A DNA stretch of 64,000 nt from contig CAWBNQ010000003.1 in assembly GCA_963790205.1 (NCBI GenBank), forward strand, positions 704,001-768,000, in the 5' to 3' direction. The position numbers were made by a program, and so were the translations under genes. Source of the DNA: Nitrospirota bacterium (lineage in GTDB: Bacteria; Nitrospirota; UBA9217). The notes below the pieces were generated by a model. The model did not search any database. It saw nothing but the letters and a program-made list of their open reading frames with translations, and was not told the DNA's origin. Numbering within the stretch: the first letter of the stretch is position 1; the number at the start of each line of letters is the position of its first letter. This document shows positions 13,807 to 23,500 of the stretch, in pieces.

Positions 13807-14366
13807 ACGGCCCTGCTCCGCCGGCCCGCAACAGGCAAGTGGTCCTGCCTTGTCCACAGTCAATCATGCCGTAAGGCTTTAAAACCCCGGCCCTCTGCTC
13901 CATTCACGGGAACTTCGTGCACACGGGAATACAAACTCGGAAAATCAGAAGTCCGTTTCGGAACGATCGGTGTGATCTTCATTGGCGACGGAGCGCCTAC
14001 TCTCTACCTTGTGGCCGGCTCCGGCAACGCGATCACCGAAATATGCGAGGCCAAGAGCACCGCTATGGCCGCCATCAGCTACAAACCTGCCGCCCTGCAC
14101 GCGGGCCATGTATTTCTGCAACAAAGTGTTCTCAGGTTTTTCGAAGCTGAAAATCAGGGTTTCCCCGATTGACTTTCGAGTTCTAAAATATTATGGTTGA
14201 TGGAAAAAAGCAGGTTGCTCCAAAAGTACTTTCTGAAAATAGCACTTCCTTGCATTTACTGGTTCGACGATTCACGGTTAGAACAGTATCAGTATTCCCG
14301 CTTTCGCATTGCCGCATTACCTCGTTTAGCTTTTGCTTTAAAAATAAAATAAACGGAGAACAGACC

Positions 14367-14997
14367 ATGCAGGCTGCTGCTTGTATTCGAGGGAATGGAC
14401 GTGCGTTACTTTGCCTGAGTTTTTTCTTACTGCTTTCATTCGCTCATTCGTCTCCGGCGCAGCAGGTTCCTCCCGGCACCGTTAGCTGCACTGAAAGTGA
14501 TGATCGCAATGGTGAATACTATAAGGCATGTTCGGTAACGTGCGGGCCTGCGGATTGGGGCTATTCCGTTGATATCAGCATTTACGGCGATATTTGGGAT
14601 GCCCGTATAGGGGGGTACGGATGGGTTGAAACAGGATCCTACGGCGTGGCTTTGCAATGCGTAAATGGGTGGACAGCTAGTTGGGTGAACGTGGAATATG
14701 ATACCGAGGCATGGGTTGATTTCGACAACTGGGTGGCGATTCCCATTCCGGCCCCGCCCGCCGTCACCATCAACCCCGTGACCACACCGACGAATCTGCA
14801 AAGCCAGATGCTCAGCGGGACCATGAAGACAGGATCCACAATTGCGGTCACTTGCCCGACGGCAACAGTCGGCTCCGTGACCTATCCCACGTCCACATCA
14901 TGGACGGCAACGCTCAATATGCAGCCGGGGAACAATGCAATAACCGTTATTGCTACGGATTCCGCGGGCACTCCGTCCGCTCTTCAGACAAGCATAA
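14367..14997 (+). pseudogene. 5' part of a giant secreted RCC1/Ig-repeat protein gene (signal peptide, 4-Cys domain, Ig-like domain), cut by the mobile element
   Basis: GGAG RBS then ATG 14367 and a hydrophobic signal. Rejoins in frame to 17570 as ...QTSI-T-VNFPGTV... Confidence 0.85.
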
Positions 14998-15304
14998 TGT
15001 TAAGGCTTCTTTCTGAACGCTTTATTCAGAAAGAAGCTGGTTGGGCTAAGCCGTTGCGCGCCACGTCGCTATGGGATTTCAAATGATTTGTCAGCTTAAA
15101 ACGAAGTCCGCGGAGACAGCATTGGCAGGGGCGTGAGACTTGTTCGGGTGAAAAGCGGCGATTCCGGACTGCTCCGCAAGCCCCTTTCGTAAAAGACTAT
15201 ACAGGAAAAAGGGCTTTTGGGCAATAGGGTATCGTTGCGAAAGACGTGACTTTTTTCGGGGATGGATGTCGGAGTCGGGTTGTTCATTTCAGTGCTTGTG
15301 GTAA

Positions 15305-16498
15305 TCATATTCGCGGCGGTCCTTTGCAGCGCGCGGGCTGCATGATCTCGATTGTGCGCATTCTGCGTTCGCCGCAGGCAGGGCATTTGGCCACGTCAAT
15401 GCCGGCGATCCTGAGCAAAGCTTCCTGCCACGTCTCAGTCTTCTGCTCCGCCTCGTTCTGATCAACGCAGGCCAGAAGCTCTCTGCATTGGTCGAGTTTC
15501 TTTCTGCGGCATCTGTTTCCCAACAGACCGTAATGCCTGATTTTGACAAACCGGTCGGGCAGGACATGAAGCAGGAACCGCCGGATGAACTCATCGGCGT
15601 CCACGGTCATGATCTTGCTTTTGTTGCTGTCCGCGTAGTCGCGCCACCGGAAGGAGATCTTGTCGTCCATCATCTTCACGAGCCGGTGATTGCTGATCGC
15701 GATACGGTGGGTGTATCTGCCGAGATACTCAAGAACGCCTTTTGTTCCGTCGAACGGCGGCTTACAATAGACGACCCACTGCTTCTTGTACAAATCGGCG
15801 ATGAAGGCCTTGAAAACTCCCGGCGACGCAAGATGGCTTACGACGCCGGGGTAGACAAGTTTGTTCTCGGCACGGAGTTTTTTCAGATAAGCGAGAAACT
15901 TCCCCCGAAAGAGTTTCGACATGACCTTGACGGGAAGGAAAAAGCCATTCTTGCATGATTTCCATTTCCGTCCGCCCTTGGACAATCCGCCGCCGGTGAC
16001 GATGTTGTGGAGATGCGGATGATCCATAAGGTTCTGTCCCCAGGTGTGCAGGATCGAGATAAAACCGATTTCCGCGCCCAAGTGTTTCTGCGTATTCGAG
16101 AGTTCCGTCAGGGTTTCCGAAACGGCCTTGAACAGGATCCCGTAGAGGGCCTCCTGGTTCCGGAGCACAAGGGGATTGAGTTTATCGGGGATGGTAAAAA
16201 CGACATGGAAGTAAGGAATGGGAAGCAGGTCTTCTTCCCGGGCCTCGATCCACTGCTCTTTTTTAAGGAACTGGCACTTGGGGCAATGCCGGTTTCTGCA
16301 GGAGTTGTACGAGATCACTTTTGTCCCGCAGTGCTCGCATTCGTCCACGTGACCGCCTTGGTCGGCGGTGCGGCAGGTCTCGATCGCCCGCATGGCGCGA
16401 AGACGATTCAAGGGCATGGGATGAGCGTTCCGGTAAAGAGGACCGTACCGGCGAAAGATGTCCGCGACTTCGATCTGTAGGCTATCTCGCGTGTACAC
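15305..16498 (-). CDS. IS91-family rolling-circle transposase (Zn-binding domain + Y2 domain)
   Basis: CRT..GG...C..C...SCRNRHCPKCQ, YFHVVFT.P, HTWG...HPHLH (HUH), YLGRY (YxxxY), KIRHYGLL, C-terminal CPAC. Confidence 0.93.
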   Translation of the reverse strand: MYTRDSLQIEVADIFRRYGPLYRNAHPMPLNRLRAMRAIETCRTADQGGHVDECEHCGTKVISYNSCRNRHCPKCQFLKKEQWIEAREEDLLPIPYFHVVFTIPDKLNPLVLRNQEALYGILFKAVSETLTELSNTQKHLGAEIGFISILHTWGQNLMDHPHLHNIVTGGGLSKGGRKWKSCKNGFFLPVKVMSKLFRGKFLAYLKKLRAENKLVYPGVVSHLASPGVFKAFIADLYKKQWVVYCKPPFDGTKGVLEYLGRYTHRIAISNHRLVKMMDDKISFRWRDYADSNKSKIMTVDADEFIRRFLLHVLPDRFVKIRHYGLLGNRCRRKKLDQCRELLACVDQNEAEQKTETWQEALLRIAGIDVAKCPACGERRMRTIEIMQPARCKGPPRI

Positions 16499-16519
16499 CG
16501 CGGGTGTCGCGTGTGCAGG

Positions 16520-17377
16520 CTACGAGGTTTGTGGAGGATTTAAGAAGGGGCCTAAGTCCAGAGGGCTCACGATCTTTGAGAGGTTCTTTTTGCTCACGTG
16601 GAGATAAATAGTGGTCGTTCTCACCGACGCATGGCCGAGCAGAAGCTGAATATAGTGCAGATCAGCTCCCGACTCCAGCAGGTGTGTGGCGAAGCTATGC
16701 CGAAGCGTGTGACAACTTGCCGGCTTCGTGATGCCGGCTTTTTTCTTCGCGCGTTTGAACGCCTCTTGGACGGTGCTAATGGAAATGTAGTTTTCAGGCT
16801 TTTCTCCCGGAAAGAGCCAATGCGTCGGTCTATATTCTTTCCAGTATTCCCGAAGCGCTTCCAGCGCTACCTGGGATAAAAGGGTATACCGGTCTTTTTT
16901 GCCTTTGCCCTGGTCCACGCGTATCAGCATACGGCTGCTGTCGATGTCCGTGATCTTGAGCCGGGCGGTCTCGCTCGCCCGGAGCCCTGCCGAGTAGGTC
17001 ACCATCAGCATCACGCGCTGCTTCAGGCTGGGAGTGGCTTCGAACATGGCCTGTACCTCCTCCCGTTCGAGAACGATAGGAAGTGTCTTGGTCGTCTTCG
17101 GATAGGGAATCTTGTCCATCACCCAACCTTTGCCCAGCGTCGTTTCATAGAGGAACCGCAGCGCGCTGTAAGTTATCTTCAGGGTGGATAGCGATACCTT
17201 CTTATCCCGGACGAGGTAAAGCAGATACGCTTTGACATCGCCGTCTTCCAAAAGGTCGGGCGGTTTTTTAAAATGGCGTTCCATATCGCGCGCCGCCCGG
17301 TGATACAATGATTGCGTCTTCGGGGCTAATCCTCGAAGCACCATGTCGCCCTGCATCTGTTCTTTGAACGTTTCCAT
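16520..17377 (-). CDS. Tyrosine recombinase (phage integrase family, SAM-like N-terminal domain)
   Basis: Catalytic residues all present: YSAGLR, QGKGKKDR, HTLRHSFATHLLE, LLGH, TTTIY. Confidence 0.95.
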   Translation of the reverse strand: METFKEQMQGDMVLRGLAPKTQSLYHRAARDMERHFKKPPDLLEDGDVKAYLLYLVRDKKVSLSTLKITYSALRFLYETTLGKGWVMDKIPYPKTTKTLPIVLEREEVQAMFEATPSLKQRVMLMVTYSAGLRASETARLKITDIDSSRMLIRVDQGKGKKDRYTLLSQVALEALREYWKEYRPTHWLFPGEKPENYISISTVQEAFKRAKKKAGITKPASCHTLRHSFATHLLESGADLHYIQLLLGHASVRTTTIYLHVSKKNLSKIVSPLDLGPFLNPPQTS

Positions 17378-17569
17378 TGCATAATCTCCTTCCGTTGAAT
17401 CGAAATTCCAACGGCATGACGCCGATGGTGATGCGAAAGAAGATTGTAGAACGGTCAGGATTATGAAGCAAGGAGCGAGACGAAGAAAATCTATCGAGAT
17501 ATGCGGGGATGAATTGTAGAGAGACTTATTGGAATGCGAATAACACCGCCGCGCAGCGGCTTAGTTCAA

Positions 17570-20500
17570 CGGTCAATTTCCCCGGCACGGTCAGGTGCGA
17601 TGCATATGATAACGGAGGCGATTGGACAACGTGGTGTTCGATAACCTGCGCGCCTGCAGCTTCGGGCTATTCCGTTGATATCACCGTTAATGTCGCCGCT
17701 TCCGAGCTTGCCGAAGTAAATGCGGGAGGAGCATTCGGTCCTCCCGGCGGAACTTATACTCAGAGTGTGCAATGCAATAATGGGGTGGCATTCGCTTCAG
17801 TAGACGTGTACTATTTCGGCGGCGCCCCTAACACAACGTTTTCTTTCAATAACTGGACGCCGATCATCCCCCCTGGTACAGACGCCACGCCGCCCGCGGG
17901 CAGTTTTGCGATCAACAACGGAGCAGCCTCCACGAACAACGCATCGGTAACATTGACGCTCAACGCGACGGACAGCCAGAGCGGCGTCTCCCAGATGCAG
18001 TTCAGTAATGATAATACGACCTGGTCGACTGCTGAGCCTTACGCAGCGGCAAAGAGCTGGACCCTGGCCGCAGGCGACGGGGCGAAAACGGTATCCGCGA
18101 AGTTCAAGGACAATGCAGGCAACTGGTCAACGGCCGTTTCCAGCTTCATCCAGTTCGACACCTTGCCGCCGGCAACATCCGCCACGCCGGCGGGCGGCGT
18201 ATACGGCCCGGGCCTCATGGTGACTCTGGCGTCGAACGAAACCGCGACGATCTACTACACGACGGACGGAACCATGCCGACCACGGGTTCGGCGGCCTAT
18301 GTTGGGCCGATAAGCATATTTGCCGCGACGACGTTCAAGTACTTCGCTCTCGACACAGCAGGTAACAGCGGGCCGGTCAATACCGCCATCTATGAGATCG
18401 CCGCCTCTCCGCCTCTAGAAAGCCTGCTGATCAACAACGGAGCAGTCTATACGAACAGTCTGTCGGTGACGCTTACGCTCAGCTGCCCCGACGCGCTGAG
18501 CGGGTGTGCTTCAATGCAGTTCAGCAACGATAACAGTACCTGGTCGATGGTGGAGGCATTCACGCCGGCCAAGACATGGCAGCTTTCACCGGGGGACGGA
18601 CGGAAGACCGTGTACGCGAAGTTCATAAATGGCGCGGGGAACATAGCCGTATGCAGCGCCGCGATTATGCTTGATACGGGCCCACTGTCAACAACGTTAT
18701 CAACCAACCCACTATCGCCTGATGGCGTCGACGGCTGGTTTAAAACAATACCGACGATTGCGTTAAGCAGCAACGTATCGGGCACGACTTACTATCGGTG
18801 GGGGACAGGTGGATATTATTCTTCAAGACAACCCCATGAATGGATAAGCGATGGCACTCCTCTCAATATCCGCGGCGATGAAACCGGCAATTGGTATACT
18901 TTACCATTCAGTTTCACGTTCTACGGCACCAGTTACAACCAGGTCTTTCTCTCAAGCAACGGTCTGATGAGTTTTGAATCGGAAATCGCCGATTATTACG
19001 ATGGAGCGGGCCTGTCCAGCAGGCTCGCCATAGCCCCCTTGTGGGATGATCTGCAAACGGATACGCGTCCAGGTGATGATATTTATGTATTCCAGCCTGA
19101 TGCGGACTCAGTCGGATTCAGATGGCAAGCAGTAACCTATGGCAGCGAAATAGATACCAACTTCGAGGTCATTCTTTACCGCGACGGACGTATACGGTTC
19201 AATTACGACACACAAAACGGTGGTCTATACGGGACTATCGGAATTTCCAAGGGTGACGGCGTAAATTACAGCGTAGCATACGACGGTGATATTTCCACTA
19301 CGAATCATAGGGATTCTATTGTGTTTGCGCCAAGTAGGTGGAATGTCTACACAAACCCATTTGCCGCATTCAATGGAGAAAATATTTTATATTATTACAC
19401 CGCAGATAATAGTGGACATGTTGAAACAGCGAAGAATCAGTTATTCAAGGTCGATACCATCGTACCGATCGTAAGCATCACCTCGCCCCTGGCCGGGTTG
19501 ACAAACAATACCATGCCTCTGTTTAGTTACACGCTGAGCAAGGTTACGTCCACCAATACCGTGATGGTGGATGGAGTGACGGTGAATAAGCTGTCCGGCG
19601 ATACGTTGGATCCACTATCGTCAGGTCCGCATACGGTGCGGGTGGATGTCACTGACTATGCCGGAAATACGGCTTTTGCGGAGGTTGTATTCACGGTAGT
19701 GTCCTACGCGCCGAGCGTGAGCATCGTTTCGCCCGCGGCTGGGGCCGCGAACAATAGCAGGCCACTTTTGAGTTACCTGGTGAACTACGGCACGGTGACG
19801 GTGAAAGTAGACGGCGTAGCGGTAAATAAAACATCAGGAAACAATTTAGACGTACTTGCCGACGGACGGCATGCGGTGCGTGTGGAATCCGTGGATGCTT
19901 CGGGACATACAACTTTTTCCGAGGTGAAATTTGTCGTTGATACTACCCCCCCGCTGGCATCGGGTATGCCGAATTTCATTAAAATTGCTGCCGGAGACAT
20001 TCATTCAACGGCTATTACGAGTGATGGAAATATGTGGCAGTGGGGGCGCATACTTGATGAAAACGCATTAGAAGGTCGGTGGACCGATGTTGCCTCGCCT
20101 ACCCCAGCAGGCACAGCCTATGCGTGGACAGCAGTTGCTACCGGCTTGTCCAGCAATTTGGCTCTCAAGGCCGATGGAACATTATGGGCATGGGGAAATA
20201 ATCTATACGGTCAGTTGGGAGACGGTACTAATGTAGATAAATATTCACCGGTTCAGGTCGGCACAGCCGCCGATTGGAAGACGGTCTCCACGAGTGGTTT
20301 GCACAGTGTAGCTTTGAAAAACAACGGGACCTTATGGGCGTGGGGTGCTAACGAGTATGGCCAATTAGGGGGCGGTGCCCGTTACCGACAGTATACCGCG
20401 GTTCAGATCGGCCATGATACAAACTGGGCCGCAGTCTCAACAGGAAGTTGCCATACCATTGCGCTCAAGTCCGACGGTACCTTGTGGGCATGGGGCGCAA

Positions 20501-23500
20501 ACTCGAATGGCCAACTGGGAGACGGATCAGGGGCTGATCAATATGAACCGGTGCAAATTGGAAACGATACCGACTGGGCCGCTATCTCAGCAGGATCTTA
20601 TCATACGGTTGCTCTTAAGTCCGACGGGTCTTTATGGGCCTGGGGAGCAAACTCAAACGGTCAATTGGGAGATGGGTCAAGACTGGATCACTATGTTCCT
20701 GTCCGGGTCGAGGCTGATAACAATTGGGCTTCGATTTCGGCAGGATATGATTATACCGTGGTCCTCAAATCAGACGGGACGTTATGGGCGTGGGGAAGCA
20801 ACTCAAATGGTCAGTTGGGAGACGGGACAACTAATGATAAATACATTCCCGAACAGATAGGCGCGGAAAACACGTGGTCAATGGTTGCCGCCGGCGTGAT
20901 CCACACCTTGGCCCTGAAATCGAATGGAACGTTATGGACCTGGGGGGTGAACTGGTACGGCCAGCTCGGTGATGGAACGGAGCAGGATAGGATGACACCG
21001 CATTATACTTTTGCAGTCAGCGAGGCACTCGTTATAAACAACGGGGCGGCCGCGACGAACAACACGTCCGTTACCTTGACTCTGAATGCCTGGGATGTGA
21101 CAAGCGGATTGGCCTTCATGCAATTCAGCAACAATGGAGCAACGTGGTCGACTCCCGAGCCCTATACCTCGACCACGAATTGGGTGCTTGGTTCGGAGAA
21201 CGGAACGAAGACGGTGTATGCGATGTTCCAGGACGCGGCGGGGAACTGGTCCGCTCCTGTCAGCGCCTGGGTTATTCTAAACGCCGGGCCGACGAAAGTG
21301 AGCATTACCTCGCCAGTCGCCGGTTTTACGCAAAACAACGCGCCGTTGTTGAGTTTTGCGGTAAACAAGAGCGATACGGCGAATACCGTGAAGGTGGACG
21401 GCGTTGTGGTCAACAAGATCTCCGGCAACACGCTCGACGCTCTTGCCGAAGGTACGCACACGGTCCGGGTGGAAGCTGTTGATCCGAACGGAATAATGGG
21501 TTTTGCCGAGGTAACCTTTACGGTAGACAGCGTAATCCCGATCGTTACCATCACTGCCCCGGCAGCAGGCCTCTCGAACAACAATCAGCCCGTGCTCACT
21601 TACACGGTGAACAAAGATCAGACCTCGAATACGGTCAAGATTGACGGCGTTGCGGTCAACAAGACATCGGGTGATACGCTCGATGCGCTTACGGATGGTA
21701 TCCATAGACTGCGGGTTGAAACCACGGATCAGTACGGTTACCGTGCATTTACCGAGGTGTCCTTTACGGTGGACACGGAAGCGCCGGCAGGGATGGTTGC
21801 TTTGAAGTTCAAGTTCATTGACGCGGGAACGTATCATTCTACAGCAATTGCGCTGAATGGGACTTTATGGGCGTGGGGCCTAAACGGGGCCGGGCAACTG
21901 GGAGACGGAACGACAATCTCTAAACTTACGCCGACTTTGATAGGAACCGACACCGACTGGGCCGTGGTATCGGCCGGCGAGCTGCGTACGGTAGCGCTCA
22001 AGACGGACGGGAGTTTATGGGCTTGGGGAGCGAACAACAGCGGCCTGTTGGGAGACGGAACAAATGTTGATAGACACGTTCCGACCAGGATAGGAAGCGA
22101 TAAGGACTGGATTGCGATTTCAGCCGGCCAGGATCTCACTACTGCGCGTAAGTCAGACGGGTCCCTATGGGCTTGGGGATGGTTGGGAGACGGAGGGTAT
22201 TACGGAGGGTACGGTGATACCAATGTCCCTATCATGATAGGAGCGCCGGAATCTAGCGCGGTTTCTGCGGGTTCGACCACATTAACATATACCGGTAAAA
22301 CAGCGATAGGATTGCCGAAATCCAGTGCATTCTCTGCAAGCTTGAATACGGGGGAAGGCTATACGGGTTTGTATACCGATACCGGGGACGTCTCTGCGGG
22401 CGCTGCCTATCTCCTCGCGCTTCAAGAGGGGGCGCTATGGGCCGCAGGTCGGAATGATGCCGGTCAATTGGGCTTTAACGGATGCGAGCTCGAATTCTAT
22501 AGCTTCACCCAAGTGAGCACGGACACTAACTGGGCTGCCGTTTCGGCCGTAGCTGATCATAGCCAAGCGCTCAAGGCCGATGGGTCGTTATGGGCATGGG
22601 GAAACGGAGTGTCTGTCCCAACGAAAGTGGGGACTGATAATGATTGGGCCGCTGTTTCAGCAGGCGCGACCCATACGGTGGCGCTCAAGACCGATGGGAC
22701 GTTATGGGCGTGGGGGGTCAATACGTTTGGACAGCTCTGGGAGACGGTACCACTGTTGACAAACCTGCACCGATTCAAATAGGCTACGATACCAATTGGG
22801 CTACGGTCTCGGCCGGGGACGGCTTTACCCTGGCGCTCAAGTACGACGGAACGGTGTGGGCGTGGGGAATCAACTCGTCCGGCCAGCTGGGAGACGGAAC
22901 GACACAGAATCGCACGACGCCTCAACAAGTGCATTTCCCCGTCCTCGGATCGAACAATCCGATCGTGATAAATGGCGGCGCAGCCGTTACAAATAGCGCG
23001 TCCGTTACGTTGACGCTCTCCGTCTGGGACGCAACGAGCGGAACGGCATTCATGAAATTTAGCAACGACGGAGCATCCTGGACGGATCCCGAGCCTTATG
23101 CCACGACGAAGACCTGGGCACTCAGCCCTGGCGACGGCCCGAAGACGGTCTTTGCCATGTTCCAGGACAGAGCGGGTAACTGGTCGCTGCCGTATACCGC
23201 AATGATCGCTCTTGACACTGTCGCCCCGACCGTAGTCATAACCTCGCCGGTTTCCGGTCTTACAGACTACAACCGACCGCTTTTGGAATATACGGCGAAC
23301 GAGGGCATCGTTATCGTGAAAGTTGACGGTGTTGCTGTCAGCACAACATCAGGCAACACGCTCGATATTCTGGCCGACGGGAGTCATACTATCCGCGTTG
23401 AAGCAGCGGATGCAGCCGGAAACGTCGGCTACGCAGAAGCGACCCTCACTGTCGATGCCGTCGCGCCAACCGTATCGATAGCCTCGCCGTCAGCCGTGGC

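Follow-up and report, generated by a model that had tools for sequence, protein, structure and literature searches.

An IS91-family element with its own tyrosine recombinase: a foldable end-to-end junction and a symmetric target

The element and its genes

The window analysed here is a 64,000-nucleotide stretch of a Nitrospirota bacterium genome (assembly GCA_963790205.1, contig CAWBNQ010000003.1, positions 704,001 to 768,000), in which a 2572-bp element of the IS91 family interrupts a gene for a large Ig/RCC1-repeat protein. The element encodes a Y2 HUH transposase and, upstream of it, a tyrosine recombinase resembling the integrases of integrons (Table 1). An earlier note on this DNA had proposed that the transposase makes a single-stranded circle, that the joined ends fold into a strand-specific attachment site, and that the recombinase integrates this site at AAC sequences. 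The comparisons described below lend good support to a folded single-strand recombination site that is matched to a symmetric duplex target.

Seven full copies of the element, 99.8-100% identical, are dispersed over five contigs of the genome, which also holds partial relatives of the 2.6-kb element. The differing flanks of the copies define the ends and bear out the boundaries at 14998 and 17569 drawn in the earlier note. The left ends read YAA^T in 8/8 cases (the seven full copies and one partial relative; the caret marks a boundary or cut), and the right ends read GTTCAA^C in six copies and GTTCAA^T in the seventh. Deleting 14998-17569 restores a single open host frame of 2005 codons, indicating that nothing was duplicated; a target duplication of 1-3 bases was also rejected because the -1 base differs between the left and right sides in most copies. 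The element is intact, multi-copy and recently spread. No empty site for the window's interrupted gene was found among 60 relatives, nor was any found for two copies with an odd -1 base, for which one query was placed too far from the site. One copy (G000:C3:523302-525871) has an additional base and a frameshift in its transposase near residue 373. The interrupted gene itself contains an internal repeat (14529-14589 and 17635-17695, 82% alike) that flanks the insertion.

The transposase scores 471 bits against NF033538 (cut-off 125), and its HUH motif and both tyrosines are present in 73/73 aligned relatives. For the recombinase the best solved relative is IntI4 (2A3V), from which it differs by a gap of ~40 residues, that is, it is without the IntI insertion (I2); it scores 204.6 bits against TIGR02249 (IntI), below the cut-off of 265, and its catalytic R-K-H-R-H-Y residues are kept in 72-73 of 73 relatives. 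The recombinase gene lies ahead of the transposase gene in 74/75 genome loci with enough sequence. This gene pair is already known. Elements with ISfinder names such as ISAzo26 and ISWz1 are presumably of this kind, and it has been speculated that the recombinase acts in multimer resolution or integration. IS91-linked upstream tyrosine recombinases form an integron-like subgroup that is without the IntI insertion, and the available part of the paper that reports this holds no description that we found of the ends, the target symmetry or the role of the recombinase (10.1101/542381).

Table 1. Features of the element and its insertion site (positions in the window)
Feature	Positions	Strand	Basis
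Whole element	14998..17569	none	7 copies; host frame restored
Target left half, TAA, before insertion point	14995..14997	+	left flanks
Target right half, 7-base spacer then TT	17570..17578	+	right flanks
First 7 bases of element, top side of asymmetric loop in folded junction	14998..15004	+	7-base segments in 58 distinct ends, length imposed by the parser
13-bp perfect hairpin, variable tip	15005..15037	+	pairing; relatives
Inner arm, GTTRRRY-like start, pairs with far end	15040..15060	+	pairing; 15045 polymorphic
IS91-family Y2 HUH transposase, 397 aa	15305..16498	-	PF04986, PF14319, NF033538
Tyrosine recombinase, 285 aa, integron-integrase-like	16520..17377	-	PF00589, PF13495
Promoter-like site facing both genes	17513..17540	-	consensus match only; 1 found vs 0.3 expected
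ter-type mini-hairpin, GNA loop	17548..17560	+	GNA in 29/38 distinct ends, GNNA in 4 more
GTTC (IS801/IS1294 ter cleavage word) plus AA; putative first recombinase half-site	17564..17569	+	sequence; PMC13181058
Host gene, 5' part (large Ig/RCC1-repeat protein)	14193..14997	+	domain matches; restored frame
Host gene, 3' part	17570..22782	+	domain matches; restored frame

Relatives were drawn from genomes (the best 78 of 207 confirmed stretches with a transposase, many of them Nitrospirota) and from metagenomes (64 loci with a recombinase). Motif-anchored parsing gave both arms in 71 elements, corresponding to 41 distinct arm pairs, with L032 and L113 dropped for doubtful ends and seven loci with another left-end register excluded from flank and hairpin counts. 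Collapsing near-identical flanks reduced the targets from 47 to 40 in the clade of the window's element, whose left flanks end in YAA (AA clade), and from 29 to 25 in a sister clade, whose left flanks end in TW (TW clade).

Fold of the joined ends and symmetry of the target

When the right end is joined to the left end, 17550-17569 pairs with 15041-15060 through 17 Watson-Crick and three G.T pairs. This stem and the perfect hairpin beyond it, separated by a loop of 6 bases above and 2 below, have the coordinates and the pairing claimed in the earlier note. The hairpin is likely both the ori palindrome and the second recombinase half-site (pair 15010:15032). Folding energies of the joined ends are -31.1 (+ strand) and -28.7 (- strand) kcal/mol, compared with -13.7 ± 2.4 kcal/mol for 200 shuffles (DNA parameters), a z-score that is not blind as the join was selected beforehand. 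The + strand is antisense to the transposase gene, and we take it, by analogy, to correspond to the bottom strand inserted by IS91 (PMC13181058).

All three wobbles fall on the + strand, as the earlier note had pointed out, but three wobbles in one copy carry little weight, and position 15045 in the stem is polymorphic (G in two and A in five of the seven full copies; A in the sequencing runs listed there), so the case for a strand bias depends on the relatives. There the stem is kept with compensating change and the wobbles are strand-biased, as the note had anticipated for homologues. At inner-stem positions -1 to -12 of the 41 distinct arm pairs, 54 G.T and no A.C pairs occur on the + strand (six position classes versus none, p 0.03), and at outer positions -13 to -20, where mismatches are many, the counts are 24 and 13. 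Across 55 distinct hairpins the length ranges between 33 and 109 nt at constant stem geometry, with 22 G.T and 2 A.C pairs; the first 11 positions are gap-free and Watson-Crick paired in 573/605 cases, with no extra-helical bases. The + strand folds more stably than the - strand in 42 of 47 junctions, with a mean difference of 2.9 kcal/mol. A motif-free search for a stem between the end regions beat 12 shuffles in 48/73 loci (44/61 at transposase identities of at least 58% and 4/12 below 58%) and scored the + strand higher than the - strand in 60 loci and lower in 8. Cut or broken ends account for several of the misses, and distant subfamilies may have another architecture.

Position 15045 is also the sole difference among the six intact copies of the genome. 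At the right end, the mini-hairpin overlaps the cross-junction stem, so that the two folds are mutually exclusive alternatives; we infer that the mini-hairpin marks ter in the donor and that the long stem forms in the circle. The arms (17546-17570 and 15040-15053) together with the mini-hairpin resemble in sequence the bottom strand of the aadA1 attC (L143) at its second stem and tip.

The junction that the earlier note had predicted for the joined ends is present, at the predicted place, in four assemblies. One is a closed contig of 2580 nt with a 55-nt overlap (L094); in two others the element's own right end runs into its left end (140 nt in L014 and 14 nt in L010); and in a contig of sequencing run X1 position 17567 continues at 14996, with two letters common to both sides, exactly the predicted join. 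No such join was found among the joints listed for the other six sequencing runs.

The insertion sites are two-fold symmetric about seven bases, with the layout TAA-N7-TT in the AA clade and TW-N7-WA in the TW clade. Among AA-clade left flanks, -1 is A in 35/35, -2 is A in 34/35 and -3 is T in 28/35. On the right, TT stands at +8 and +9 in 5/5 distinct flanks of the window's genome, against 7.3% of 79,215 YAAY sites, and in 14/35 of the other AA-clade flanks, the five of discovery excluded, against a background of 11%. Base +9 is T in 26/40 AA-clade targets and A in 24/25 TW-clade targets. Flank-to-flank complementarity peaks at a spacer of seven bases in both clades (0.63 at 29 sites and 0.58 at 23 sites), with other spacers at 0.17-0.47. 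Sites of tyrosine recombinases consist of two inverted half-sites with a 6-8 bp spacer (PMC4792948), an architecture that the targets share, and attI1, taken from a plasmid record, has the identical TAA-N7-TT layout. IS91 targets, by contrast, are a one-sided tetranucleotide (PMC13181058). The IS91 rule of a CTTG/GTTC-type tetranucleotide 5' of ori with the cut right after it does not describe the insertions here: the left flanks terminate in YAA or TW, a GTTC-like word is absent before the left end, and GTTC instead sits inside ter, two bases ahead of the element boundary. Our own comparison with plain IS91 covered four copies whose ends were judged by eye. The symmetric target with its 7-base spacer, which the earlier note had not recognised, speaks for a tyrosine recombinase as the enzyme that determines where the element inserts. 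Integration at AAC sites, as originally proposed, fits the AA clade and does not hold for the whole family, the sister clade using TW^C.

Fold and target switch together between the clades. Arm position -2 is base-paired in all 41 arm pairs, 25 times as A:T and 16 times as T:A, and hairpin pair +13 is T:A in 32/34 AA-clade ends and A:T in 24/24 TW-clade ends, following the clade in 56/58. With a loop of this asymmetry, pair +13 falls exactly at target +9 when counted along the lower strand of the fold, and the two match in 20/20 TW and 15/24 AA sites. Pairing of the spacer with that strand is at expectation in the TW clade (29/120 versus 31.1) and in moderate excess at +2 to +7 in the AA clade (52/144 versus 36.5), and AA-clade -3 favours the wobble base T (30) over the Watson-Crick base C (4) in 36 sites. 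The unpaired TW spacer and the preference for T over C at -3 fit read-out by a protein better than a base-pairing guide; the AA spacer excess fits either such a guide or repeated use of one attI family.

On the transposase tree the TW clade is a single branch; on the recombinase tree it is one main branch, with two uncertain rows that fall outside it. Both gene trees show one switch, and the covariation is therefore one coordinated event; assigning the change of specificity to one enzyme through the trees was abandoned, as their agreement leaves no power. Three residues of the recombinase split the clades (S64G, D239S and I243V, one of them in the N-terminal domain) and none of the transposase does, in a residue and tree comparison that left out six rows. 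In XerH the bases beside the cut are read by N-terminal helices (PMC5241119), and the residues are a mere hint that the recombinase may set the target.

Proposed mechanism and alternatives

We favour, with a probability of roughly 0.6, a mechanism in which a single-stranded circle arises through the HUH enzyme and its folded junction is integrated by the recombinase that the element encodes; which enzyme does what is our inference. The + strand would be copied out by the transposase into a circle of single-stranded DNA, its joined ends would fold into the recombinase site, and the recombinase would cut at AA^Y and exchange one strand with the duplex TAA-N7-TT target. Replication would then resolve the product of this one-strand exchange, as in attC x attI recombination. 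Less firmly, closure of the circle may involve a cut 1-2 bases ahead of the one used for integration, right after GTYC. Among the 8 copies in genome G001 (2556 bp) and the 3 copies in G002 (2580 bp), the copies differ only at right-end position -1, where a single copy in each genome has T in place of A. On a 25-row tree this position takes all four bases with six changes, the same number as a loop base, and -2, -3, -5 and -6 are unchanged. Inheritance of -1 from the left flank of the donor would explain the variation, with the circle-closing cut between -3 and -1; repair of an A.A mismatch, or a shifted crossover that fits one of the two cases, may also account for it. Integration with its boundary right after GTTC was excluded, as the left-flank -1 base varies among identical copies. 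A complete self-encoded route, in which the HUH enzyme closes the circle after GTYC and the I2-less recombinase cuts the folded junction two bases downstream, is offered as a tentative proposal.

Several observations weigh against the mechanism that we favour. The second half-site is loose in the AA clade, where TT is missing in 21/40 targets; in the TW clade the agreement with the target is nearly as good at an offset of -3 as at +4 (0.66 versus 0.72); and the AA-to-TW switch, judged from the trees, is a single event that does not separate the enzymes. Of the 20-bp stem, only 12-14 bp on the inner side are conserved, the parsing behind the arm counts was motif-anchored and biased toward conserved arms, and the motif-free stem rises above shuffles in only about two thirds of the loci and a third of the distant ones. 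The join appears in one of seven runs, which may be the source sample, and since head-to-tail joins also occur with plain IS91, those observed may be tandem copies instead of free circles. Furthermore, the roles of both enzymes are predicted, the recombinase is without the IntI insertion, the hairpin is without extra-helical bases, and the IS91 transposase inserts bottom-strand circles without a recombinase (PMC13181058). Integration of CTX-phage attP by XerCD, however, shows that a folded site without extra-helical bases and a recombinase without I2 can work (PMC4792948).

That ability of IS91 TnpA to insert circles alone speaks for a reading in which both steps are the work of the HUH transposase, with the inner arm guiding the cut sites by base pairing and the recombinase confined to a helper role, in target finding or multimer resolution. 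The ends do have IS91 anatomy, with palindromes near both, GTTC at ter and no duplication, flank bases -2, -1 and +1 are able to pair with the inner arm, and the AA-clade spacer pairs somewhat in excess. We nevertheless consider this reading unlikely: the target information is two-sided and seven bases apart, the TW spacer is unpaired while +9 pairs at every site, the wobble base is favoured at -3, and the left end follows no GTTC-like word. A division at the opposite extreme, in which the recombinase excises and integrates the element as IntI does a cassette and the transposase merely supplies or amplifies single-stranded DNA by nicking GTTC in the circle, would suit an anatomy like that of a cassette with its site downstream of the genes. 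The in-place left junction can already fold into a short first half-site and the hairpin, and GTTC adjoins the ori end solely in the joined form. A sole -1 difference among the G001 and G002 copies is unexpected if the same bond is cut in both steps, and seven or eight copies per genome suggest copy-out, making this division distinctly unlikely.

Insertion of a transposase-made circle by a host integron integrase, with the element as an attC mimic, draws on the surroundings of the copies. The genome has three IntI matches above cut-off. A copy on contig C6 has a divergent intI 287 bp away and stands at the head of a true integron, a set of co-oriented genes with attC-like sites; two further copies occupy paralogues of this entry site, which places three of the seven in one entry-site family, and the copy on C14 precedes a gene and then an attC-like site (by a crude, home-made attC scan with 71 matches genome-wide, which serves as a pointer only). 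A divergent intI lies beside 6/35 AA-clade ends, in rows that are not independent, and the AA-clade fold pairs AA^Y with GTT. IntI, however, requires AAC/GTT (PMC2727003, PMC4792948), whereas in the TW clade the fold pairs TW^C with GAA, and an intI lies beside 0/25 ends. The fold is also without extra-helical bases, the window's copy, which lies inside an ordinary gene, and at least one other are outside any array, and nearly all relatives retain an intact recombinase of their own; we regard such insertion as improbable. Finally, the arms could be ordinary double-stranded inverted protein-binding sites and the fold incidental, given that any joined inverted repeat folds and the two strands differ by only ~3 kcal/mol. 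This is very improbable in view of the one-sided G.T bias in both stems, the GNA loops and the constant geometry beneath a tip of 33 to 109 nt; in duplex DNA, moreover, the arms would be 42 to more than 100 bp apart, far beyond the 6-8 bp spacer of such recombinases.

Relation to known systems and integron context

By its transposase the element belongs to the IS91 family, and by its target rule it is non-canonical. With IS91, IS801, IS1294 and IS1294b it shares a Y2 HUH transposase above cut-off, ori downstream and ter upstream of the gene, a ter palindrome with GTTC, palindromic ori and ter ends that are unlike each other, the absence of duplication and ter-ori joins, whether circular or tandem; it differs in the extra recombinase gene, the boundary two bases after GTTC, the two-sided target and the long end-to-end stem. 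It likely inserts like a self-propelled integron cassette, though it is not one. As in cassettes recombined by IntI between attC and attI, genes are followed by a folded site, RYYYAA^Y is paired with GTTRRRY, the spacer is unpaired and the tip variable, and several copies sit at entry sites in cassette orientation. The AAC/GTT box geometry of attC, cut at AA^C, recurs in 25/41 arm pairs (AA clade) and not in the TW clade, and the window element's own join reads AAT, with a presumed cut at AA^Y. Unlike cassettes, the element has its own recombinase without the I2 insertion, its own rolling-circle enzyme, a clade without AAC, no extra-helical bases, a first stem of 12-14 bp and a loop of 6 versus 2 bases. 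CTX-phage attP and other users of host XerCD likewise combine a folded single-stranded site without extra-helical bases with a recombinase lacking I2 (PMC4792948), but rely on host enzymes and one chromosomal site, dif, rather than on an own recombinase and many loose sites such as those of the seven dispersed copies. Integrative elements that circularize with a strand bias (SE elements) also combine one-strand copy-out with tyrosine recombinases; they differ in having four genes, including two recombinases, and, according to their description, neither an attC-like nor a dif-like inverted repeat could be detected at the sites (10.1101/2021.06.22.449512).

We did not find the mechanism in full-text literature searches, which did not reach ISfinder, TnCentral or most subscription papers. 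Escudero et al. (2016; PMC4792948) name the CTX phage as the sole cassette-like reaction, incomplete in that it encodes no integrase. If the proposed mechanism is true, the family would be a complete system of cassette-like recombination, and its recombinases the closest known kin of IntI to act, without the I2 helix, on a folded site. The mechanism would also give a function to a catalogued but unexplained recombinase gene. With the two separate cuts tentatively proposed above, the system would amount to a distinct route of transposition by two enzymes and a living model of a pre-integron step, with cassette, folded site and integrase still together. The two natural specificity classes make the origin of attC recognition testable, and because the element occupies integron entry sites it can alter cassette arrays.

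Read-through past ter is the less likely origin of the right flank shared by three copies; 71 identical bases are followed by divergence to 83-95%, a pattern that paralogous entry sites explain better. A partial relative (G000:C3:666940-667500; left end and transposase tail, 82% identical) heads a cassette array, and its left flank resembles the right-end arm, possibly the relic of an end-to-end join. The right flanks of L007, L081, L091 and L012 resemble attC hairpins, which places these copies between cassettes, and the L091 flank has an empty look-alike on contig C2 of G000. The host integron integrases (G000:C5:72807-74198, C6:108781-110381 and C3:626737-628162) carry a long N-terminal extension (463 aa on C5), and the genes on C3 and C6 appear split across two frames.

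Eleven recombinase relatives at 37-62% identity (L105, L107-L109, L122, L130, L133-L135, L139 and L141) had no transposase, and the end motif was not found in them either; varied co-oriented genes lie downstream, and they are possibly I2-less integron heads. In G002, L174 and L175 are derivatives of ~500-600 bp with both ends, the former inserted in a paralogue of the site occupied by the full element L154. Lastly, the same gene pair, with arms complementary by eye, occurs in two named isolates, on a Bradyrhizobium plasmid (L144) and a Clostridium plasmid (L145), which are possible culturable models.

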